A stretch of 39,909 bases of DNA from a virus (lineage: Duplodnaviria; Heunggongvirae; Uroviricota; Caudoviricetes): IMG/VR virus record IMGVR_UViG_2706794690_000014; one strand, written 5' to 3'. Positions within the stretch are counted from its first letter, which is position 1; each line of letters opens with the position of its first letter. Positions 1,899 through 39,909 of the stretch are shown here, in pieces. Under the pieces are notes generated by a model. The model was not told the origin of the DNA. It saw nothing but the letters and a program-made list of their open reading frames with translations, and did not search any database. A program made the translations under genes and the position numbers.

Positions 1899-3986
1899 AT
1901 GTTTGCTTCAGTTAAAGAACTGGTTGGATTACCGGGGATGCCGGGAACGGAGCAAGGCGTTCGCTATTCAATCAGGAAGTATGCAACCAGCGAAACCAGC
2001 AGACGCCGCAAGAAAGGCGCTAAAGGTTTTGAATACAGCATTGACTGTTTACCTGAAGTGACACAGCAGGCATTACGCGAACGTTATGCCCTGCAACTGA
2101 TGACGCAAAAAGCCGATGAATCACCGGCTCCGGTGGTGACAAAGGCCAGACGCTCGTCTGCCGTGGTTGATGCGGTGGAGGCATATCGCGGATCACCACA
2201 ACTGATGGTCGAACGCCTCAATGCCCTGACTGAAAACCAGCGCCAGGTGGCAGACGCACGCATTGCGATCGTCAGTGAGGTGCTGAAATTCACGCAACAA
2301 CCCGGTTTCAGCTGCGCTAAAGCTATCCGGTTCCTCGTTAACAGCCTGGCACGATCACAACTGGACGAGCGCATTGTGGCAATGGTTGAGACGGCGAACG
2401 CCAAAAAGGGAAACAGCCGCGCGTTGAGTGAAATCACGCTGAAACGCTGGATTGCGGCCTTTAACAAGGCACAGAACGCCGCTGAACGCCTGCTTTTACT
2501 GGCACCGGGTAAACGCCAGGAAATAAAAGCCGAAGATATTAACTGGCTGCCCGAATTTCTGGCGCAGTATCGCCAGTCAAACGGCCGACCAATGACCGAG
2601 GCTTACGAGGATTTTGTTGCTGAATGGCAGCACCGGCACGCTGATGAGCCTTATATGCTCGATATCATGCCCTCTTATGACACCATTCGCCGCGCAATGA
2701 AGAAACTGCCGGAAGTGGTGAAACAAAAAGGCCGGGTAACTGGCAGTGAATACCGTCAGCTTGAGGGATTCACGCGCCGCGACTGGTCCAGAATGCCGGT
2801 GAATTATGTCTGGATTGGTGACGGTCACGGCATGAAGCTGAAATGCGCGCACCCGGTTCACGGGCGGCCATTCGCACCGGAAGTGACCTTTGTTATCGAC
2901 GGTGGCACGCGCTTTGTGGTGGGCTGGAGCCTTGACCTGGCTGAAAATGTTTTCGCCGTAGCCGGTGCCATACAGCACGGTATTCGCCATCATGGCAAAC
3001 CGTTTCTGTATTACTCGGATAATGGCTCCGGGGAAACCGCCGACGTCCTGGATAAGGAGATTGTGGGGATACTGCCACGACTGGGGATTAATCACCCGAC
3101 AGGGATTGCCGGTAATCCGCAGGGACGGGGCATTATCGAACGGCTTAACCGCACATTACCGATGCGCATAGCCCGTAAATACCGCACCTATTTCGGGAAA
3201 GGAGCAGATCGCGAGACGTTACGTAAAACCAACCGCGATTTACGCTCGGCATTCAGTGCCCTGCAACAGGGCAAACGGCTGAACGCCCGGCAGCAGTCAG
3301 CGATGCGTGATTTACCGTCCTGGTCTGAACTGATTGATGCCATTCGTGACGGTGTTGAGTGGTACAACAACCGGCCGCACGATGAATTACCCATGAAGCC
3401 GAACGGTAAACATTACAGCCCGGCGGAGTTCAGAAAAAAACGCCTGGCGGAAGAGGACACGGAAATTGAATGGCTGTCCGATGTTGAACTGCGGGATATG
3501 TTCCGGCCGATGGTGGAGCGCCCTGTAAGACGCTGTGAAATACGCTGGCTGAATAATATTTACTACGCGCCCGAGCTGCGTGACGAGCATGGCCGTAAGG
3601 TACTTATCAGCTATGACATTCATGATGCCGAACGAATTACCGTGCGCCGCCCGGATGGCAGCGTGATTTGCGAGGCGGTATGGGACGGCAATAAACGCGA
3701 AGCCTTCCCTGTCAGCGCGGAATACTACAAACAGCAGCAGCGCCTTAAAGGCATGCGTAAACGCGCAGAGGAAAAAATCCGTGATGCCGAGGATGAGGTT
3801 GTCAACGTGCTGGAGCACAAGCCGCAGGAGCCCTGGCTGGAAAACATATACCGCCCTGTGGGTAATACGGTGACCGTTCAGCAACCGGTCGCTGACGATG
3901 AACCTGATGAAGAATACGAGCGTAATTTCCAGCGGGGATTGCAACTGCTCGAAGCGAAATTAAAAGAAAGTGATCCGCTGGCCTGA
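1899..3986 (+). CDS. DDE transposase, MuA-like
   Basis: 695-aa ORF following ner, with an integrase-core-like region (VWIGDGHGMKL...). Size and position match Mu transposase A. Confidence 0.85.
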   Translation: MFASVKELVGLPGMPGTEQGVRYSIRKYATSETSRRRKKGAKGFEYSIDCLPEVTQQALRERYALQLMTQKADESPAPVVTKARRSSAVVDAVEAYRGSPQLMVERLNALTENQRQVADARIAIVSEVLKFTQQPGFSCAKAIRFLVNSLARSQLDERIVAMVETANAKKGNSRALSEITLKRWIAAFNKAQNAAERLLLLAPGKRQEIKAEDINWLPEFLAQYRQSNGRPMTEAYEDFVAEWQHRHADEPYMLDIMPSYDTIRRAMKKLPEVVKQKGRVTGSEYRQLEGFTRRDWSRMPVNYVWIGDGHGMKLKCAHPVHGRPFAPEVTFVIDGGTRFVVGWSLDLAENVFAVAGAIQHGIRHHGKPFLYYSDNGSGETADVLDKEIVGILPRLGINHPTGIAGNPQGRGIIERLNRTLPMRIARKYRTYFGKGADRETLRKTNRDLRSAFSALQQGKRLNARQQSAMRDLPSWSELIDAIRDGVEWYNNRPHDELPMKPNGKHYSPAEFRKKRLAEEDTEIEWLSDVELRDMFRPMVERPVRRCEIRWLNNIYYAPELRDEHGRKVLISYDIHDAERITVRRPDGSVICEAVWDGNKREAFPVSAEYYKQQQRLKGMRKRAEEKIRDAEDEVVNVLEHKPQEPWLENIYRPVGNTVTVQQPVADDEPDEEYERNFQRGLQLLEAKLKESDPLA

Positions 3987-5237: not shown

Positions 5238-5492
5238 ATGAATATGCAATCCTGCGGTAACAAAATGAATTTATTCGACTCCCTGAACAGCGCGCGCCGT
5301 CTGACCGAACTTGCCGGTGCGGTACTGGAACGCAGTAAGCGCTATCCGCAACGTTTTGCACTGAAAACCACGCCGCCGGTAGGCAACGTGCAGGGAACCG
5401 GTGAAATTGAAATCACCATACAGACCAACGGCCTGCGCCGCCGTGTGAAGGCCACCCGCATCAGCGGCTGCACGGTTTACTGGGAGGTGTGA
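5238..5492 (+). CDS. Hypothetical early protein
   Basis: ORF with GAGGTG upstream; start could be 5226, 5238 or 5244. Confidence 0.4.
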   Translation: MNMQSCGNKMNLFDSLNSARRLTELAGAVLERSKRYPQRFALKTTPPVGNVQGTGEIEITIQTNGLRRRVKATRISGCTVYWEV

Positions 5493-10260: not shown

Positions 10261-10683
10261 ATGGCTGAAACACAGATGAGCATGTTTGGTGACAGCGAAC
10301 AGCTGCACGCGCTGATTGACCGTCTGGATGATATTCCTGATGATGAGCTGAAAAAGAACTGGCCCGGCACGCTGCGGGACCTGGTTGATGTGATCAGTGC
10401 TGAACTGCACCGTCAGGGGATTGAACCTGCTCAGGCGGGAATGCTTGCCCGTAAGGTTGCAGCCGCACAGGCCGGGTACATGGGCGGGCGTGGTTATTAT
10501 CTCCCGGTCGGTGAATCCCTTTTCACCGAACTGCGCAATAATGAAATTTTTTCCCGCTGGAGCCAGGGCGAAAAAATTGAAACCCTGCGCCGCCACTACC
10601 AGATGTCAGAGACGCAGATTTACTCCGTTATCCGCAACCAGCGTCGCCTGCATCAGGAACGCACGCAGCCACGGCTTTTCTGA
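10261..10683 (+). CDS. Mor/C-family late transcription activator
   Basis: 140 aa with a C-terminal HTH (MSETQIYSVIRNQRR); sits between gemA and the lysis genes as Mor/C do in Mu. Cannot tell Mor from C. Confidence 0.7.
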   Translation: MAETQMSMFGDSEQLHALIDRLDDIPDDELKKNWPGTLRDLVDVISAELHRQGIEPAQAGMLARKVAAAQAGYMGGRGYYLPVGESLFTELRNNEIFSRWSQGEKIETLRRHYQMSETQIYSVIRNQRRLHQERTQPRLF

Positions 10684-10754
10684 TATTCCGCAAATCCTGC
10701 CCCCTTTTCCTCACGGTTACGCTGACTCAGAGAACACCATGAGACAGCGTAACA

Positions 10755-18739: not shown

Positions 18740-18916
18740 TGGTTTAAGGTATGCAAACGTATTACCTTACCCCCTTCAGGCGCGTGTCGTGATTTTCTAA
18801 CCTGTATTTAACGGGCTTTAAAATCTGCGTGAAGCGCCTTTCTCATTCCCCCCCTGTCAGCACTTTCTGAAGTCCCGCAAAACCAGCCCCAAAAATACCC
18901 GGCTTATGCTGCCGGT

Positions 18917-30306: not shown

Positions 30307-30736
30307 TATTGCAATTGTATGGGATCAGGGGTGCGGTTCGCTGCAACTGAACGGTGCCGACTTGCTGACGGATGACAGTCTGCTGACGGCCGTTCTGATT
30401 TCGCTGTTTACTGACCGCCGGGCGCTGGCATCGGATGAAATCCCTGACGGTACGCGCGACCGCCGGGGATGGTGGGGAGACAGTTTTCGCCCGCGCCCCA
30501 TTGGCTCCCGTCTGTGGCTTCTCAGCCGGGAAAAAACGCTGGCCTCGGTGATAAGCCGTGCCCGTGCTTACGCGGATGAGGCGCTGGGCTGGCTCAGTCA
30601 GGATGGCGTGGCGTCATCCGTGGTCTGTCATGCAGAACGTGTGGGACACGCGCGGCTGGCGCTTTCGGTGCGCATAACCCTGCCTGATGGTTCAGTGAGG
30701 CCCATGATTTTTTATGCTGATCTTAAGGGGGAGTAA
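30299..30736 (+). CDS. Baseplate protein (gpW-like, Mu gp46)
   Basis: ATG at 30299 gives a 145-aa protein (MADIAIVWDQG...), preferred over the upstream start at 30155. Confidence 0.65.
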   Translation: MADIAIVWDQGCGSLQLNGADLLTDDSLLTAVLISLFTDRRALASDEIPDGTRDRRGWWGDSFRPRPIGSRLWLLSREKTLASVISRARAYADEALGWLSQDGVASSVVCHAERVGHARLALSVRITLPDGSVRPMIFYADLKGE

Positions 30737-31818
30737 TGCCTTATCAGCCTTTACCGCTGGCACAGTTAATCACGCAGACACAGCAGGATATCAGCCAGCG
30801 CCTGCCCGGCTCGCAGCCGGGTGTGAATGAAACCACCCTGAATGCCATTGCTTACGCTCAGGCAGGGTTATCTGCTCAGGAGCATGAGCATCTGGCCTGG
30901 ATTGCGCGTCAGATCATCCCGACCGAAGCCGATGAAGCCGAACTGCTGAAACACTGTGCATTCTGGGGCGTCATGCGTAAGCCTGCCTCTCGGGGGGACG
31001 GGCCGGTTCAGCTGATGCTGACCACGGATGCGGGGATCAAGGAAGGTGTGCTTCTCCAGCGAAGTGATGGCGTGGTTTACCGTATCACCACCTCCCTGAC
31101 CGGTAAGGCCGGTACGCTGAATGTCAGTGTGGAAGCCGAAAGTGCCGGTCGTGCGGGGAATGCCCCGGCAGGGACAAAACTGACATTTATCACACCGCAG
31201 GCGGGGATCAACCAGACGGCCACGGTGACCGGAACGGGGATCACCGGTGGTGCGGATGTGGAAACCGTGCCGGAGCTGCTTTCCCGTCTGGTTTTCCGGG
31301 TGCAGAATCCACCGTCCGGCGGCACGCAGTATGATTTTGAACGCTGGGCGCGTGAAGTGCCGGGCGTGACGCGGGCATGGTGCCGCCCGGAATGGCCGCA
31401 GGCGGGCAGCGTGGGGGTAACGTTTGTTCAGGATAATAACCCGGATATTTTCCCCGGTGACGGTGATGTTCAGCGGGTGGCGGATTATATCCGCAGTCAT
31501 GATGATCCGGCGACCGGCCAGCCTGTCGGACAGCCTCTGGGGCCGACGGTGACCGTGTTTAAACTGACCAATAAGCCGGTGCCCTTCAGCATCAGGATCA
31601 TCCCGAAAACACCGGAGAATCAGGCGGCCGTAAAACAGGCGCTGACCGACCTGTTGTATAACGAATCCCGGCCCGGCGGTCTGGTTCTGCCGTCGTCTTT
31701 CTGGCGGGCGGTGGCAGGGGTGAAAAATCTGGAGGATTTTGAAGTGCGCAGTCCGCTGACGTCAGTTCAGGCGGGAGACAGTGAGCTGCTGACGGTAGGA
31801 GAAATCACATGGCTGTAA
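30736..31818 (+). CDS. Baseplate J-like protein (Mu gp47)
   Basis: 360-aa ORF coupled to its neighbours; position as in Mu/P2-type baseplate clusters. Confidence 0.7.
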   Translation: MPYQPLPLAQLITQTQQDISQRLPGSQPGVNETTLNAIAYAQAGLSAQEHEHLAWIARQIIPTEADEAELLKHCAFWGVMRKPASRGDGPVQLMLTTDAGIKEGVLLQRSDGVVYRITTSLTGKAGTLNVSVEAESAGRAGNAPAGTKLTFITPQAGINQTATVTGTGITGGADVETVPELLSRLVFRVQNPPSGGTQYDFERWAREVPGVTRAWCRPEWPQAGSVGVTFVQDNNPDIFPGDGDVQRVADYIRSHDDPATGQPVGQPLGPTVTVFKLTNKPVPFSIRIIPKTPENQAAVKQALTDLLYNESRPGGLVLPSSFWRAVAGVKNLEDFEVRSPLTSVQAGDSELLTVGEITWL

Positions 31819-32369
31819 CCCTGACCCCGCATCAGCGCGCCCTGTTGCAGTTACTGCCTGACGGGCTGGCATGGGACAAGCGTCCGTCATCCGTACTGGC
31901 ATCATTATGTCTGGGCCTCAGTCATTCGACAGCGCGTGTATCCTGGACGGGTAAACAGCTGCTTGCCGAGCGTTTCCCTGACACGTCGCGCCTGCTGCTG
32001 GAAGACTGGGAGCGTTATCTCGGGCTTCCCGAGTGTGATATGGCCGGAGCCACCCTCACGGAGCGACAGCGTTATGCCGGAAATAAATACCGGATGAAGC
32101 CCTCGCTGAACCGTGAATTTTATATCCGGTTTGCGGCGGAGTTTGGTTATCAGATTGACATTCAGCCCTCACCGGATTCGCAGTGGGTCAGTATTGTCAC
32201 GATTAACAGTGAAACCGGCTACCGGAATATGAATGTGCTGGATGATATTCTCACGCCGCTGCGTATTTATGAAGGCGGTGCGCTGGAATGTATTCTGAAC
32301 CGTTATAAGCCTGCATGGCAGACGTTTATTTACGTTTATGCAAACAGCCATGAAGAGGAGACTATTTAA
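31809..32369 (+). CDS. Tail protein (Mu gp48-like)
   Basis: 186-aa ORF immediately before the tail fiber gene. Confidence 0.65.
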
Positions 32370-33250
32370 TGTTTCATGTTGATAATAATTCCGGCGTGGC
32401 GAATATGCCTGCGCTGGCACCGGCGCAGAGTAATACCACCACCTGGTTTACCGAAGGTGACGGACAAAAAGGTATCAGCTGGATTGGTCAGGACTGGCTG
32501 AATATTCTCCAGGCCGAACTGCTGAATATTCTGGCTGAAGCCAGTATTCAGCCGGATAAGGCGCAGTTAAACCAGCTTACGCTGTCCATTAAAGCCATTA
32601 TCGCTGCGAATGCCTTTTCCCGGAAAAATAACCTGAAAGAAATTGCTGATGCCGGTGCGGAGGCCCAGCGTCTGGCCCGTGGTTATCTTGGTCTGGGGAC
32701 GCTTGCCACAAAAAACAGTCTTGGTCCCGCTGACGTTAATGCCCTGGCGAAGGATCAGAATCTCGCCGACCTGGAGAATAAGGGAACCGCCCGTAATAAT
32801 CTGGATGTTTACAGCAAAAGCGAAGGTGATAACCGTTACCTGCGCAGGGAGCAGAACGGCGCAGACATTCCGGATAAAGGGGCTTTTATCGATAACGTCG
32901 GTTTACGGGAAACGGTAAACAGGGCGGCGAATGCCCTGCCATCGGACGGCACCGCCGTTGCCGCGAACAGGCTGGCAAATGCCCACACAATTAATGGTGT
33001 TCCCTTTGACGGGACGCAGGATATCACTATCTCATCAGGAACAGTAACCGCCATAAGACTGGGGTCGGTGACCGCACATATGCCCGGAACATGGGAAAGC
33101 TGGGATCTGAATCTGGGGGGCGGCAATGTTCTTACCGGAATTAAAGTACAGGATGTCGGTAAGAATACGGCAGATAACGTCGGCGGCGTGTATTACCGGC
33201 CGTTGCAGTATCTGTTAAATGGAGCATGGGTGACGGCTGCAAGTATATAA
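32369..33250 (+). CDS. Tail fiber protein (constant N-terminal part plus invertible variable C-terminal part)
   Basis: 293-aa ORF; a gix-like site lies in-frame at codons FIDNVGLRE (32886-32911), so everything 3' of 32899 is inside the invertible segment. Confidence 0.8.
32886..32911. repeat. gix-like recombination site, left
   Basis: ttatcgataacg-tc-ggtttacgggaa: two 12-bp half-sites around a 2-bp core; the right half is the exact reverse complement of the left half of the right site. Confidence 0.7.
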
Positions 33251-33259
33251 TGATATTCA

Positions 33260-33277
33260 GAAGGCCTTCCGGCCTTC
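33260..33277. terminator. Bidirectional terminator-like hairpin between convergent genes
   Basis: gaaggcc-ttcc-ggccttc followed by tttatta, between the tail fiber stop (33250) and the minus-strand assembly gene stop (33282). Confidence 0.5.
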
Positions 33278-33281
33278 TTTA

Positions 33282-33803
33282 TTACTGTGGCTGCTCAGGC
33301 CATTTAATGGCGTTAAATTCAGCTTCTGTTTTAATGGCGGGTAGTTCCATTTTCTTCACCTGACTGATGTATGCCATCCATTGGGTAAGTGCTGCTCTGT
33401 CTTCATCGCTGATGGTGCCCAGTTGTAGCTCCGTTCTCCAGTCATTAATTTTTTCATATGCCTGATTAAGATATGACTGGCGCATTGCTTCCAGTTTTCT
33501 TGCGTAGTTAACCGGAATACGGGAGATTATGCCATTATCAAACTTCCAGTTTCCTGAAATATCCGTGCCTTCAGGGAGTTCATCGACCTCAACCACAGAA
33601 AACCCCGCAGGATACAGCGCCGAGGCGTCCTGTGATATTGAGCAGATAACGCCGCTGTCAGGTGTTATGCAAAGTTTATATTTTTTGGTGAATAATGGCA
33701 GGGATTCGTAGAAATCCTTACCATCTTCACTCTGGAAATACTGAACATTATTACCATATGGCATATTTTCAGGATAATAACGGGTTATATTTTTTAGTTC
33801 CAT
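33282..33803 (-). CDS. Tail fiber assembly protein (U'-like)
   Basis: 173-aa minus-strand ORF inside the invertible segment, directly downstream of the silent alternative fiber cassette. Confidence 0.7.
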   Translation of the reverse strand: MELKNITRYYPENMPYGNNVQYFQSEDGKDFYESLPLFTKKYKLCITPDSGVICSISQDASALYPAGFSVVEVDELPEGTDISGNWKFDNGIISRIPVNYARKLEAMRQSYLNQAYEKINDWRTELQLGTISDEDRAALTQWMAYISQVKKMELPAIKTEAEFNAIKWPEQPQ

Positions 33804-33854
33804 AAAATCCTCCTGGAAATAAATCTGTTTTAAAATATATTATTTACTGACTAT

Positions 33855-34215
33855 TTATAACTGAGATACCGTAATCCATGTACCTCCGACTAATTTTTGC
33901 AGGGGTCTGAATGCTATAAAATCGTTTGAAGCATCAACTTTACTGTCAATCTGCAGGCCTGCCATAACATTACCGTACGCAGAGTAATATGCCCCACCGT
34001 ACATTACCTGCCTGTTCTCTGCTCCCAGCCTGATATCCTGGATATATCGGGAATCCGCATCCTGCTGTGTTATACCAGAAGTGATGTTTATGTCCTGCGT
34101 CCCGTCAAAGGGAACCCCATTAATATTTCTTGGGGTGGCGAGTCTATTCGCGGCAACGGCGGTGCCGTCCGATGGCAGAGCATTCGCCGCCCTGTTTACC
34201 GTTTCCCGTAAACCG
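33855..34215 (-). CDS. Silent alternative tail-fiber C-terminal cassette (S'v-like, no start codon)
   Basis: Minus-strand frame open from the right gix site to a TAA at 33855-33857 (~119 codons). Its first ~40 codons mirror the tail fiber ([23 protein letters not shown]...GVPFDGTQD), then diverge. Confidence 0.55.
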
Positions 34216-34228
34216 AGGTTTTCAGGAA
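34203..34228. repeat. gix-like recombination site, right
   Basis: ttcccgtaaacc-ga-ggttttcaggaa, closely matching the recalled Gin/Hin-family crossover consensus; 66 bp upstream of gin. Confidence 0.7.
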
Positions 34229-34293
34229 AGCCAGGATTAACTCTGTTTTATTCCTCATGCGACAATTCCGGCTTTTTATAATAAGGAAATCGT

Positions 34294-34866
34294 ATGCTGA
34301 TTGGGTATATCAGGGTGTCAACAAATGACCAGAATACGGCGCTACAAAGAAATGCGCTGGAATGTGCAGGATGTGAGCTGTTTTTCGAAGACAGAATAAG
34401 CGGTAAGACAAGGGAGCGTCCCGGACTTAAACGCGCATTAAAGCGACTCCGGCCAGGGGATACCCTGCTGGTCTGGAAACTGGATCGCCTTGGACGCAGT
34501 ATGCAGCACCTTGTCCTTTTAACAGAAGAACTCCGGCAACGCGGCGTTAACTTCCGCAGCATTACGGACAATATTGATACATCCACTCCCATGGGACGTT
34601 TCTTTTTCCATATAATGGGCGCGCTGGCGGAAATGGAGCGGGAACTCATTATTGAACGTACACGCGCGGGTCTTGCTGCTGCCCGTGCTCAGGGGCGTCA
34701 TGGCGGCAGACCTCAGAAACTGACAGAGAAAGAGCGGGAGCAAATCGCCCGTTTGCTGGCTAATGGCGAGTCCCGTAAACAAATCGCACTGATATTTGAT
34801 ATTGGCCTTTCCACCCTTTATCGTTATTTTCCTGCCTCACCAGCTCCGTCACCAAAAGTACCGTGA
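34294..34866 (+). CDS. gin: Serine DNA invertase (Gin/Hin/Pin family)
   Basis: N-terminal catalytic region MLIGYIRVSTNDQ and C-terminal HTH (GESRKQIALIFDIGLSTLYRYF), both typical of serine invertases. Confidence 0.9.
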   Translation: MLIGYIRVSTNDQNTALQRNALECAGCELFFEDRISGKTRERPGLKRALKRLRPGDTLLVWKLDRLGRSMQHLVLLTEELRQRGVNFRSITDNIDTSTPMGRFFFHIMGALAEMERELIIERTRAGLAAARAQGRHGGRPQKLTEKEREQIARLLANGESRKQIALIFDIGLSTLYRYFPASPAPSPKVP

Positions 34867-34951
34867 CGCTTTTTTGAATTTCCGCAAAACACATATTTTT
34901 CAGCGGTCGCTATTCTGACTCTGTTTAATTCAGAAACAGGCAGAAAAGACG

Positions 34952-37006
34952 ATGTCAGACTCCAAGTGGAAAATGCTCTCCGCCATGCCCGGAGAGTTTT
35001 CAGTCAAGGTTGCCGGTGGCACGGTGGCATTTATTGAAAGCCCTTTCCGCCCTTCGGGTAATAAAGGGGGGATCACCTTCGCAGACTGCGTGATCCGCTT
35101 CAGCACGAAAGAGCCATTATGGGTAATGCCGGTATCCGGTAATCCCAGTGCAGAAATCACCAGTTCAGGCGTGACTGGCATCATTCCAATCACATCTGAC
35201 GTGGCCGGAACGCTCACGCCCTCCGACTGGAATGCACCGGATAACGCCGGGCCTTCCGGTAGCACGAATGGCAGCAGTTCAGAGCCGGAATATTACTTTG
35301 TTGTCATTCTCGCGGGTCAGTCAAATGGCATGGCCTACGGCGAGGGGCTGCCGTTACCGGATTCGTTTGACCGCCCGGACCCACGCATTAAGCAACTGGC
35401 ACGCCGCAGTACGGTAACGCCCAACGGTACGTCGTGTACATACAACGACATCATTCCGGCAGACCACTGCCTGCATGATGTTCAGGATATGAGCGGGATA
35501 AACCACCCGAAAGCTGATCTGGCAAAAGGCCAGTACGGGACTGTCGGTCAGGGGTTGCATATTGCCAAAAAACTGCTTCCCTATATCCCACAGAATGCCG
35601 GGATACTTCTGGTGCCCTGTTGTCGTGGCGGGTCAGCATTCACCACTGGAGCCGACGGCTCATTCAGTGAGGCCAGCGGTGCTTCCGCTGATTCTTCACG
35701 CTGGGGGGCCGGTAAACCTCTGTATCAGGACCTGGTAAGCCGCACCAAAGTCGCGCTGGCGAAAAACCCGAAAAACAAACTTCTGGCTGTGGTCTGGATG
35801 CAGGGAGAGGCAGACCTTGCCTCAGGAAGCCAGCAGCATAATAGTTTATTCACGGCCATGGTTCAGCAGTTCAGAACTGACCTGGCTCCGCTTGCTGCGC
35901 AGTGCGTGAGTGGAAATGCCACCACGGTGCCGTGGATTTGCGGTGATACCACGTATTACTGGAAAAACGCTGGCACCGATAAATATGAGGCAGTATACGG
36001 TGGCTACAAAGGCAAGGAAGCACAGAAAATTTTCTTTGTACCGTTCCTGACGGATGAGAATGGACAGAGCACGCCAACGAATGCTCCGGCGGAAGACCCG
36101 GATATTGTGGCTGTCGGGTATTACGGTGCAGCATCCCGAACCCAGGGCAGTTTTGTTTCGACACAGCGTGACAGCCATTTCAGCTCATGGGCACGCAGGG
36201 GCGTCATTTCAGACCGTCTGGCCTCAGCTATTATGCTCCATGCAGGGCGCACGGCTGAACTGATGCGTGGGCAGACCGTGACACCACCGGATGAGAAGCC
36301 GTCACCTGATACACCATCAAAACCGTCCACGCCACCCGCAGACACCACGACGATGAGTACGCTATTTGCTTACCGGGCATCTGAGTCTGAAGGACGGTTG
36401 ACACCACAGGGTTGGGCTGCCGGAGGTGGCAAGGCTCAAATCGTGGATGATGCCGGAGCCAGCGGGGGTAAGGCAATGAAACTGACCAAGGAAACAGGAA
36501 GAGCCCCCTGGTACCTTGAGCATGATGCTGGTAATGGTGCGGACCTGCTGGGTAAAGGTGGTCTTGTCAGTTGTCGTTTTAAACTCGATGGCGCGCTTAC
36601 GGCTAATCAGTACGCACTGGCGCTGTACTGGCCGGTTTCTGCCCTGCCGCAAGGGGTTACTCTGGAAGGAAATGCCGGTCATAACCTGCTGGCATCGTTC
36701 TACGTACAGAGCGATGCCACAGACCTTAACGTGATGTATCACAAAGGAAACACGGCGCAGAACACGAAGCTGGGGTCATTCGGCGCATTTAATAACGAAT
36801 GGCATACGCTGGGCTTCCGTTTTGCCGGTAACAACAGTATTGAGGTGACGCCGGTCATTGATGGTAAGGACGGGACACCATTCATGCTGTCGCAGTCTCC
36901 GGTCGGCACGTTTACGGCAGACAAGTTGCGCGTGACCGATATCACTAAAAATGCGACTTACCCGGTACTGATTGACAGTATCGTGGTGGAAGTGAATAAC
37001 GCGTAA
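34952..37006 (+). CDS. nanS-p: SGNH/SASA-type esterase, prophage NanS-p-like (putative sialate O-acetylesterase)
   Basis: 684-aa ORF with the catalytic-serine motif ILAGQSNGMAYGEG; large C-terminal region typical of prophage esterases. Not a Mu core gene. Confidence 0.6.
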   Translation: MSDSKWKMLSAMPGEFSVKVAGGTVAFIESPFRPSGNKGGITFADCVIRFSTKEPLWVMPVSGNPSAEITSSGVTGIIPITSDVAGTLTPSDWNAPDNAGPSGSTNGSSSEPEYYFVVILAGQSNGMAYGEGLPLPDSFDRPDPRIKQLARRSTVTPNGTSCTYNDIIPADHCLHDVQDMSGINHPKADLAKGQYGTVGQGLHIAKKLLPYIPQNAGILLVPCCRGGSAFTTGADGSFSEASGASADSSRWGAGKPLYQDLVSRTKVALAKNPKNKLLAVVWMQGEADLASGSQQHNSLFTAMVQQFRTDLAPLAAQCVSGNATTVPWICGDTTYYWKNAGTDKYEAVYGGYKGKEAQKIFFVPFLTDENGQSTPTNAPAEDPDIVAVGYYGAASRTQGSFVSTQRDSHFSSWARRGVISDRLASAIMLHAGRTAELMRGQTVTPPDEKPSPDTPSKPSTPPADTTTMSTLFAYRASESEGRLTPQGWAAGGGKAQIVDDAGASGGKAMKLTKETGRAPWYLEHDAGNGADLLGKGGLVSCRFKLDGALTANQYALALYWPVSALPQGVTLEGNAGHNLLASFYVQSDATDLNVMYHKGNTAQNTKLGSFGAFNNEWHTLGFRFAGNNSIEVTPVIDGKDGTPFMLSQSPVGTFTADKLRVTDITKNATYPVLIDSIVVEVNNA

Positions 37007-38297: not shown

Positions 38298-38340
38298 GAG
38301 TGATAAAGATATCAACAACAAAGCAGGAGGTTATGCGGCC

Positions 38341-38541
38341 ATGTATCGAAACATACGGTGCCGACATTGTAACAAGCTACTGGCACGAGCCAGCTTCAGT
38401 TATCTGGAAGTTAAATGTCCGCGCTGTAAAACCCTCAATCAAATCACATCTCAGAGCGCCACAGAGCACCCCACATACACAAGGAAATCCTGTCGTGGGG
38501 AACAGAAAGCAAGTTACATCCCGTATCATCAGCACGCCTGA
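38341..38541 (+). CDS. com: Com-like zinc-finger translational activator
   Basis: [10 protein letters not shown]...VKCPRCK matches the Com zinc-finger pattern; AGGAGG RBS 10 nt upstream; overlaps the mom frame. Confidence 0.7.
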
Positions 38542-39232
38542 ACTTATTCACTATAACGACAATATCGTCGGTTATGGCTCCCGTGAGTTACGGGTTGAGA
38601 CAATAAGTTGCTGGCTGGCCCGGCTGGTCGTCGTCAATAAACATTACAGCCATCGTTTCGTAAATAATTCCTACCTTCATCTGGGCATATTTTCAGAACG
38701 GGAGCTGGTTGGCGTAATGCAATGGGGTTATGCCCTTAATCCAAACAATGGTGCACGCGTCGTAACTGGCACGCAGAACCGCGAATATATGGAGCTTAAC
38801 CGGTTATGGCTGCATGACTGTATGCCGAGAAACTCCGAATCAAGGGCAATCAGTTACGCGCTCAAACTAATCAGACAACTTTATCCGCAGGTGCAGTGGG
38901 TTCAGTCGTTTGCAGATGAGCGTTGTGGCTGTCTTGGTGTCGTGTACCAGGCAAGCAATTTTGATTATGTAGGCAGTCATGAAACAACATTCTATGAACT
39001 TGATGGCGAGTGGTATCACGAGATTTGCAAGAATGCAATCAAACGAGGAGGACAGCGAGGTGAACATCTGCGGGCTAATATCGACAGAGCCAGTGTTCAT
39101 AAATTCCGTCAGTTTCGTTACATCCGGTTTCTGGACAAGAGAGCCAGAAAACGCCTTAACACAAAGCTATTCAAAGTCCAGCCTTACCCAAAACCACAAA
39201 CAGTTAAAACTGGTTTGAAAGAGAGTGAATGA
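38495..39232 (+). CDS. mom: Mom-like DNA modification protein (start uncertain; frame is open from 38300)
   Basis: Last gene before the right end, overlapping com; C-terminal half has motifs ([33 protein letters not shown]) that fit my recollection of Mom. GTG 38495 chosen for a short overlap with com. Confidence 0.55.
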
Positions 39233-39390: not shown

Positions 39391-39909
39391 CCATGCTGTA
39401 AATCTCTTTATCCTGGTTGTCACAGAATAAGCCCGGTAAAATACGGGCTTATGAACGACATCTCTTCTGACGACATCTTCCTGCTGAAACAGCGCCTTGC
39501 CGAACGTCAGTTGAAAACGAAACCGCTGCTGAAATCCCTGGAAAGCTGGCTGCGTGAAAAGATGAAAACCCTGTCGCGACACTCAGAACTGGCGAAAGCG
39601 TTCGCATATGCCCTGAACCAGTGGCCGGCGCTGACGTACTATGCAGATGATGGCTGGGCTGAGGCGGACAATAACATCGCTGAAAATGCGTTGCGGATGG
39701 TCAGTCTGGGCCGCAAAAACTACCTGTTCTTCGGTTCGGATCATGGAGGAGAGCGGGGAGCGCTGCTGTACAGCCTGATCGGGACGTGCAAACTGAACGG
39801 AGTGGAGCCAGAAAGCTACCTCCGCTATGTCCTTGACGTCATAGCCGACTGGCCGATAAACCGGGTCGGCGAACTGCTCCCCTGGCGCGTAGCACTGCCG
39901 ACTGAATAA
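39391..39909 (+). pseudogene. tnpC: IS66-family transposase TnpC (orf3), 3' fragment only
   Basis: Frame opens just after the phage right end and encodes ~170 aa of transposase C-terminus; the N-terminal ~350 codons expected after tnpB are absent. Confidence 0.65.

Follow-up and report, generated by a model that had tools for sequence, protein, structure and literature searches.

The 39,909-nt sequence of the viral record IMGVR_UViG_2706794690_000014, referred to here as the window, originates from a Mu-like transposable prophage of Escherichia coli that belongs to the Sp18-like members of the Mu family. Positions 32886 to 34228 are occupied by a 1,343-bp invertible segment of the Gin type, which very probably represents an active Gin/gix switch of the tail fibre tip that works like the G segment of Mu, and which contains a single tail fibre assembly gene (tfa) for two alternative tips. 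The tail fibre gene in its present assembly (32369 to 33250, plus strand) encodes 293 amino acids (phrog_1833, tail fibre, E=7e-141). It begins with the constant N-terminal part Sc (32369 to 32885, plus strand), located outside the invertible segment, and ends with the variable tip A (Sv; 33040 to 33250, plus strand), which is the tip now expressed and has no tfa gene downstream. The opposite strand carries a silent C-terminal cassette without a start codon (33855 to 34228, minus strand) that includes the alternative tip B (S'v; 33855 to 34074, minus strand). A spacer of 51 nt with an A+T content of 78% and its own AGGAGG ribosome-binding site (33804 to 33854, minus strand) extends from the stop codon of tip B to the start of tfa (33282 to 33803, minus strand), which specifies a protein of 173 amino acids. 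The tfa gene is accordingly located downstream of the silent tip B and is convergent, tail-to-tail, with the current fibre gene, to which it is antisense. An intrinsic terminator was detected between the stop codons of the fibre gene and tfa (33259 to 33278, plus strand), consisting of a hairpin with an 8-bp stem followed by UUUAUU and a folding energy of -17.8 kcal/mol (z=-2.1).

The main elements of this layout had been proposed in an initial annotation of the window, namely gix-like sites with matching core dinucleotides around a segment of about 1.3 kb, a single fibre C-terminus expressed without an assembly gene downstream, and the only assembly gene following the silent inverted cassette. 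All three were recovered: two sites with the core TC delimit the 1,343 bp, the 293-amino-acid open reading frame (ORF) ends at the terminator, and tfa is located downstream of tip B.

Crossover sites, fibre tips and inversion of the segment

The left crossover site gixL (32886 to 32911, plus strand; 26 bp) has the sequence TTATCGATAACG-TC-GGTTTACGGGAA, and the right site gixR (34203 to 34228, plus strand; 26 bp) has the sequence TTCCCGTAAACC-GA-GGTTTTCAGGAA, which corresponds to TTCCTGAAAACC TC GGTTTACGGGAA in the reverse complement. The two sites are thus inverted to each other and share the core dinucleotide TC when each is read inward. Searching the window with a degenerate gix pattern yielded two matches, which are gixL and gixR, against 0.22 expected by chance, and one out of 100 shuffled windows contained two or more matches. 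The gixL site of Mu reads TTATCCAAAACC TC GGTTTACAGGAA, and gixR of Mu (TTCCTGTAAACC-GA-GGTTTTGGATAA) is identical to it when read inward. The sites of the window differ from those of Mu at few positions, and the 14 nt interior to the sites are identical. Moreover, gixL is placed at the codon position that is homologous to the boundary of the Mu G segment (FIQNLGLQETVN in Mu).

Inverted repeats of about 149 nt are associated with the crossover sites (left repeat, 32891 to 33039; right repeat, 34075 to 34223). They are composed of 86 nt with 93% identity and 50 nt with 84% identity, separated by a divergent patch of 13 nt, and encode a fibre segment that is common to both alleles. The initial annotation had described repeats of about 120 bp that are much longer than the crossover sites; they do exceed the sites, but their length was underestimated and is not unusual, since repeats of 165 to 200 nt occur in a P1-like C segment and repeats of 179 to 182 nt in relatives of this prophage, compared with 41 nt in Mu. 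The gin gene (34294 to 34866, plus strand) lies outside the segment, just beyond gixR, and encodes a serine DNA invertase of 190 amino acids (PF00239, E=1.6e-51; PF02796, E=4.9e-15; phrog_125, DNA invertase). The protein is 74% identical to Gin of Mu and contains an intact catalytic-serine (Ser9) motif MLIGYIRVSTNDQ. The Ser9 catalytic domain combined with a C-terminal helix-turn-helix, the inverted 26-bp sites with identical cores and the occurrence of both orientations with exchange at the crossover sites place the system among the Gin/Hin/Cin/Pin (Din) invertases.

The fibre gene itself follows the same scheme as that of the Mu G segment, with a constant N-terminus outside the segment, alternative C-termini inside it and a boundary homologous to that of Mu. 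Residues 1 to 198 match fibre S of Mu (E=9e-46 against PDB 5YVQ_A); the tip, in turn, aligns with those of Mu S and S'. Tip A is 45 to 55% identical to the tips of P1-like S, SfMu S' and P2 H, and tip B is 45 to 47% identical to the tips of P2-like H proteins. Both belong to a small family of tips that share the motif IRLG...G.V.TG...RP(L/V)Q..(I/L)NG.W with the tips of Mu S/S', P2 H and P1 S. In the strains FORC_043 and NCCP 13983, which carry the segment in the flipped state, tip B is read out as part of a fibre gene of 296 amino acids composed of Sc and tip B and followed by tfa on the same strand. The fibres of 293 and 296 amino acids have residues 1 to 222 in common and diverge thereafter; in the flipped allele of FORC_043, Sc differs by one residue.

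Evidence for inversion was obtained from the strains FORC_029 and NCCP 13983, whose prophages are inserted at the same chromosomal site, in a fimbrial usher gene beside elfD and ssuE. Within a 26.6-kb locus, the two prophages agree at every position of the left 12,617 nt and of the right 12,703 nt, whereas the middle 1,281 nt between the gix cores are exact reverse complements without a single mismatch. From 17 nt inside each core, the polymorphisms that tell the repeat arms apart are exchanged between the two sides, and the exchange point is therefore confined to a 19-nt window that contains the core dinucleotide. Positions 32300 to 34900 were found with 100% identity in several complete genomes, for instance in JE86-ST05. 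Among the complete E. coli genomes with a near-identical element, about 18 contain it in the orientation of the window and about five in the opposite one. Most genomes have a single copy; DLI.5a, TOE17 and AST46 contain two copies each, one per orientation. Both orientations, which the initial annotation had named as a mark of a working switch, are thus present along with an intact gin gene. In this mechanism, Gin recombines the two inverted gix sites, and inversion fuses Sc either to tip A, as in the present state, or to tip B.

Two observations on sequence records relate to this region. A hypothetical protein of 65 amino acids in RefSeq (WP_071995513.1; 34081 to 34281, plus strand; also 3284 to 3481 of locus L001) corresponds to nothing more than the right inverted repeat read in antisense, and the silent tip is annotated in RefSeq as a partial pseudogene. 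Both entries are annotation artefacts of the invertible segment, which likewise explains the 'partial' or 'hypothetical' tail-protein fragments beside gin in hundreds of E. coli genomes, including Sp18 of O157. Additionally, tip A contains a run of six G residues (33115 to 33120) that is one G short where this tip is silent in FORC_043 and one IMG/VR contig (L001 and L015); the resulting frameshift reflects either a genuine slippage mutation or a sequencing error at the homopolymer.

A single tfa gene in the cassette and its relatives

The deduced Tfa protein scores 69.2 bits against PF02413 (Caudo_TAP; E=4.8e-19), for which the cut-off is 22.1 bits, and is thereby a member of this family; it also matches phrog_136 (E=5e-56). 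Over residues 18 to 153 it aligns to the U protein of Mu (PDB 5YVQ_B, E=4e-16) with an identity of 30 to 35%. A hidden Markov model (HMM) was built from 11 Tfa proteins and run against all six-frame ORFs of the window, and it yielded a single match (33285 to 33839, minus strand; E=6e-85), the next best having an E value of 0.69. The second assembly gene that a profile search might have revealed is accordingly missing from the window. In contrast to Mu, in which each fibre end has its own assembly gene (S-U and S'-U'), tblastn and the HMM identified one tfa for both ends. This gene is located 51 nt from tip B and is convergent with tip A, whereas the gap between tip and tfa amounts to 0 to 20 nt in Mu, SfMu, P1-like, P2-like and lambdoid loci. 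A search of the region against Rfam gave no match.

The closest known system is the Mu G segment with its invertase Gin and the gene pairs S/U and S'/U'. Both systems share, apart from the invertase, nearly identical gix sites at a homologous fibre codon, a gin gene just outside the right site, a constant fibre N-terminus that is 46 to 47% identical to residues 1 to 198 of Mu S, and alternative tips of the same family. They differ in the size of the segment (1.3 kb here and 3 kb in Mu), in the length of the variable parts (about 70 and about 330 amino acids, respectively), in the number of tfa genes (one and two), in the spacer before tfa (51 and 2 nt) and in the repeats (149 and 41 nt), as well as in the presence of a DUF6645/SASA gene between gin and com/mom. 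The prophage Sp18 of E. coli O157:H7 Sakai and its relatives belong to the same prophage family and have the same layout, with flanks of 80 to 86% DNA identity, but contain other tip alleles and, in the case of Sp18, a tfa that is 61% identical to that of the window. The C segment with the invertase Cin in P1 and in P1-like plasmid prophages resembles the present segment in its long repeats (165 to 200 nt in a P1-like record) and in one tip that is 55% identical to tip A; unlike the present segment, the P1-like C segment contains two tfa genes, each 0 to 20 nt after a tip, and its fibres are much longer. As judged by sequence comparison, Tfa and the fibre tip of the window also align to U and to S/S' of the complex of TfaMu (gp50/U) on the fibre tip (PDB 5YVQ). 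In PMC7882524, TfaMu is cited as staying bound to the fibre tip. The prophage family and its invertible region are already known and annotated. The minimal 1.3-kb design with one chaperone and a long spacer as its signature appears to be undescribed so far; in the open-access literature searched, no paper points out or explains the arrangement with a single tfa.

Relatives were collected by scanning IMG/VR with the Tfa protein, and 80 loci were mapped by tblastn and HMM searches. Every Mu-like (Sp18-like) locus recovered through this type of tfa contains exactly one tfa gene, and the gene order in these loci is Sc, tip, tfa (convergent), tip, gin and esterase gene. At least five combinations of tips and tfa were distinguished, comprising two types of tip A alleles, three unrelated types of tip B alleles and tfa alleles with 60 to 100% identity, and both orientations were seen within cassette types. 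The layout with one tfa also occurs in the Sp18-like prophages of E. coli O157 and O111, in Citrobacter rodentium and in a divergent E. coli lineage (L106). In Citrobacter braakii it is realised with other modules, such that an A-type tip is linked to tfa and a different type of tip occupies the position without tfa. The ratio of nonsynonymous to synonymous substitutions (dN/dS) was 0.10 to 0.23 for tfa and 0.04 to 0.15 for the tfa-less A tips, whose synonymous divergence (dS) exceeds 1 and which are intact in nearly all loci. These ratios indicate that both tfa and the tfa-less tip are under purifying selection, and the layout with one tfa is in all likelihood a selected design and not a product of decay.

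The notion that all members of the family contain one tfa was ruled out by cassettes with two tfa genes on the same backbone. These cassettes (L103 to L105; E. coli GCA_011836255.2) contain gp48, Sc (98% identity), gin (81%) and the DUF6645 esterase gene in the same order, but their tips have unrelated folds (Gp53-like_C and Collar), and each tip is followed by its own, different tfa at a distance of 20 and 0 nt, respectively. The cassettes with one tfa are accordingly those in which both tips come from one small family. Two tfa-like genes are likewise present in Salmonella relatives. A scan with the fibre protein that covered one genome per species yielded eight loci, two of which were useful.

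The spacer before tfa in the one-tfa cassettes has a length of 51, 69, 79, 120 or about 133 nt and contains its own ribosome-binding site, whereas about 50 other loci, among them the two-tfa cassettes of the shared backbone, have gaps of 0 to 20 nt between tip and tfa. The A+T content reaches 75 to 78% in the spacers of 51 and 79 nt and amounts to 57 to 67% in those of other lengths. Two independent deletions with different junctions have removed tip B, gixR and most of gin, one of them found in eight mapped loci (L006, L021 and L025 to L030) and in the strains M1, M3, M18 and CI5, the other in L107. Both gin-less lineages have kept the spacer and an intact tfa that converges on the fibre gene. 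A lineage frozen in the opposite orientation was not seen.

Two further features were observed in individual loci. The spacer of 120 nt in L005 opens with a remnant of an earlier fibre tip (2164 to 2200, with equivalents in L004, L023 and L041), namely its final 12 codons (LINGSWRTAGSA*), and this fossil tip end directly follows the stop codon of the present tip B as a visible scar of tip replacement. In C. braakii ATCC 51113 (L093, 5459 to 8223), three candidate crossover repeats were identified, the site in the fibre gene being paired with two sites near gin, and a further pair is located at 5459 and 7841; inversion may occur here in more than one form. In the same locus, gin is followed by a gene for a collagen-like repeat protein.

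Possible supply of Tfa to the two fibre tips

The initial annotation had considered that the active fibre folds unaided or that the switch is partly decayed; a third option, one Tfa for both tips, was not among its interpretations. The comparative data slightly favour this third option. As a whole, the explanation that combines a working counterpart of Mu G, a conserved design with one tfa and a Tfa probably shared by both tips is considered the best one, with somewhat better than even chances of being correct. Its central part, that the single Tfa acts as a generic chaperone for both tips and becomes available in either orientation, probably through a promoter located in the spacer, is put forward as a tentative proposal. 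A-type tips are directly followed by tfa in SfMu, in a P1-like phage, in many P2-like phages and in C. braakii, and in some P2-like phages the tfa gene after an A-type tip is of the present type (58 to 62% identity). The tfa alleles do not co-vary with the type of tip B, and a comparison of the N-terminal domain of Tfa with the tip types, performed to find the cognate tip, revealed no co-variation either. Further points that count in favour of a shared Tfa are the retention of two tfa genes in cassettes with tips of unrelated folds and of one in cassettes with tips of the same family, the restriction of long spacers to the one-tfa cassettes, and the persistence of the spacer and tfa in two lineages without gin. 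If one Tfa serves both tips, it must also be supplied in the present orientation, in which tfa is antisense to the fibre gene. The most likely source would be a promoter, weak or dependent on an activator and so far unrecognised, within the long A+T-rich spacer that directly precedes tfa; from there, tfa would be transcribed towards the shared terminator in either orientation; in the flipped orientation, tfa would additionally be co-transcribed with the fibre gene.

Several results weigh against a shared Tfa of this kind. A scan of the segment detected no consensus promoter of the sigma-70 type on the tfa strand, and scanning of three relatives revealed no such site at a consistent position on that strand; single matches were located about 140 to 165 nt upstream of tfa in L006 (9 of 12 positions) and about 160 to 190 nt upstream in L005, in the latter case within the coding region of the B tip. 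The segment lacks the candidate late-promoter motif of this phage, YCCGCAAA-N22-23-TAYNCT, which precedes the lysozyme, I-protease and DUF6645 genes, and searches of the window for the Mu C-box TTAT-N6-ATAA and for the Mu late-promoter box TCCCGCACCT derived from Pmom, Plys and PI gave no useful match. The spacers of different cassette types are not homologous, and the -10-like hexamers common in them are expected in A+T-rich DNA. A motif search over four spacer types returned such hexamers and, in some of them, the word AAAACAGATT without significance. The long spacers could also be mere scars of module exchange, as one of them contains a fossil tip end. Moreover, dN/dS of tfa is low in the gin-less lineages (0.10 to 0.23), but the 305 nt upstream are identical there while dS of tfa amounts to 0.11; these tfa alleles differ by recombination, and the purifying selection on tfa is therefore not assignable to the locked state. 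No cultured phage with this fibre type was found in the phage collection searched, and the literature searched contained no strand-resolved expression data for Sp18.

The main rival explanation, which is regarded as less likely, assumes an asymmetric need for the chaperone: expression of tfa would be limited to the flipped state, in which it accompanies tip B, and tip A would fold and trimerise without a phage Tfa or with the aid of host chaperones, so that the two orientations would provide a bare tip and a tip that may carry bound Tfa. This would fit the present arrangement, in which tfa runs antisense to the late operon, lies beyond a terminator and has no recognisable promoter. In E. coli, the tfa-less position is always occupied by one subfamily of tips with the motif ..GI.VQ[DE].G...ADN[IV]GGVYY.., and the strong purifying selection on tip A indicates that A-type fibres are evidently functional. 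TfaMu reportedly remains on the fibre tip and binds lipopolysaccharide (North et al. 2019; North & Davidson 2021), background that is also cited in PMC7882524 and PMC9608196, and the presence or absence of Tfa could thus itself set the specificity. However, the tip A subfamily is directly followed by tfa in all other contexts examined (SfMu, P1-like, P2-like and C. braakii), and because the tfa-less position in C. braakii holds a different type of tip, independence from Tfa would have had to evolve repeatedly. In Campylobacter, the fibre of a related Mu-like prophage was functional only with the chaperone encoded downstream (PMC7882524), and an asymmetric need leaves both the long spacers and the intact tfa of the two gin-less lineages unexplained.

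The partial decay suggested in the initial annotation, by which a second tfa after tip A would have been lost and the present orientation would lead to fibre-less or non-infective particles, would reduce the segment to an infectivity on/off switch at best. The state with one tfa could derive by loss, as Mu, SfMu, P1-like segments and some cassettes on the same backbone contain two tfa genes, and the frameshift in the silent tip A of FORC_043 and of one IMG/VR contig points in the same direction. Decay is nevertheless improbable in view of a layout conserved across three species and at least five combinations of cassette modules, and of the purifying selection that acts on tfa and on tip A alleles that are nearly all intact at a dS above 1 and a dN/dS of about 0.1. 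The tfa-less orientation is, moreover, the commoner one in the assemblies and is fixed in the two independent gin-less lineages, and DNA of Sp18 is packaged in O157 Sakai (PMC2669165). Similarly improbable is a supply of Tfa in trans without a dedicated promoter, either because Gin flips some of the genome copies during lytic transposition or because a co-resident copy or another prophage provides the protein; cells would then contain mixed orientations. Three genomes do possess two copies in opposite orientations, and in flipped cassettes of the type found in the window the hairpin lacks a T-tract for the transcript of the fibre gene and tfa, so that read-through into gin is conceivable. Inversion of the Mu G segment, however, proceeds too slowly for the orientations to become mixed during a single lytic cycle. 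This route is also closed to the locked gin-less lineages, which persist with an intact tfa, and most genomes contain a single copy.

Retargeting of phages or tailocins to new hosts relies on the exchange of tail fibre tips and their Tfa chaperones, and as a rule each tip brings its own chaperone. The segment described here is a natural, widespread and active switch that departs from this rule, with two tips of about 70 amino acids arranged around a single Tfa. With respect to the shared Tfa favoured above, tfa might be a chaperone module inside the segment that is expressed from its own promoter in either orientation, inversion swapping the tip of about 70 amino acids only; or else tip A would be the first tip of the Mu S/P2 H type that assembles without Tfa. 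This view is offered with some reserve. Either a shared Tfa or a Tfa-free tip A, if true, would define the minimum sequence required for a host-range switch and the determinants of Tfa dependence. The cassette accordingly provides a compact test of whether different tips can be matured by the same Tfa and of whether there are tips that do without one, as well as a minimal 1.3-kb template for engineered host-range switches.

Prophage setting and neighbouring genes

Upstream of the fibre gene and outside the switch, the window contains gp47 (30736 to 31818, plus strand) and gp48 (31809 to 32369, plus strand), the latter encoding a YmfQ-type baseplate wedge protein (PF10076, Phage_Mu_Gp48, E=7.5e-22) as the docking partner of the fibre; in Mu, the fibre docks on gp48 (PMC11915804). 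Downstream of gin, an esterase-domain protein of 684 amino acids is encoded at 34952 to 37006 (plus strand), which combines a SASA domain (PF03629, sialate-O-acetylesterase-type SGNH) with a C-terminal DUF6645 domain. The gene is located between gin and com/mom and is preceded by a candidate late promoter of its own. The product could be a virion-associated or receptor-modifying esterase; the function of PHROG 143, which represents this protein, is listed as unknown, and no paper found mentions DUF6645.

The composite motif YCCGCA[AC][AC]-N20-24-TAnnnT was detected at 10687 to 10723, 18874 to 18910 and 34881 to 34916, on the plus strand only, and these three intergenic sites directly precede the genes for lysozyme, I-protease and the DUF6645/SASA protein. 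The motif is similar to the TCCCGCACCT box of the Mu promoters Plys and PI, and the sites are regarded as candidate late promoters for an activator of the Mor/C family that is encoded at 10261 to 10683. Near the right end of the prophage, a protein of the Mom family is encoded at 38300 to 39232 (plus strand). A fragment of an IS66-family transposase gene (39451 to 39909, plus strand) runs past the end of the window, indicating that this copy of the prophage abuts, or is inserted in, an IS66 element.

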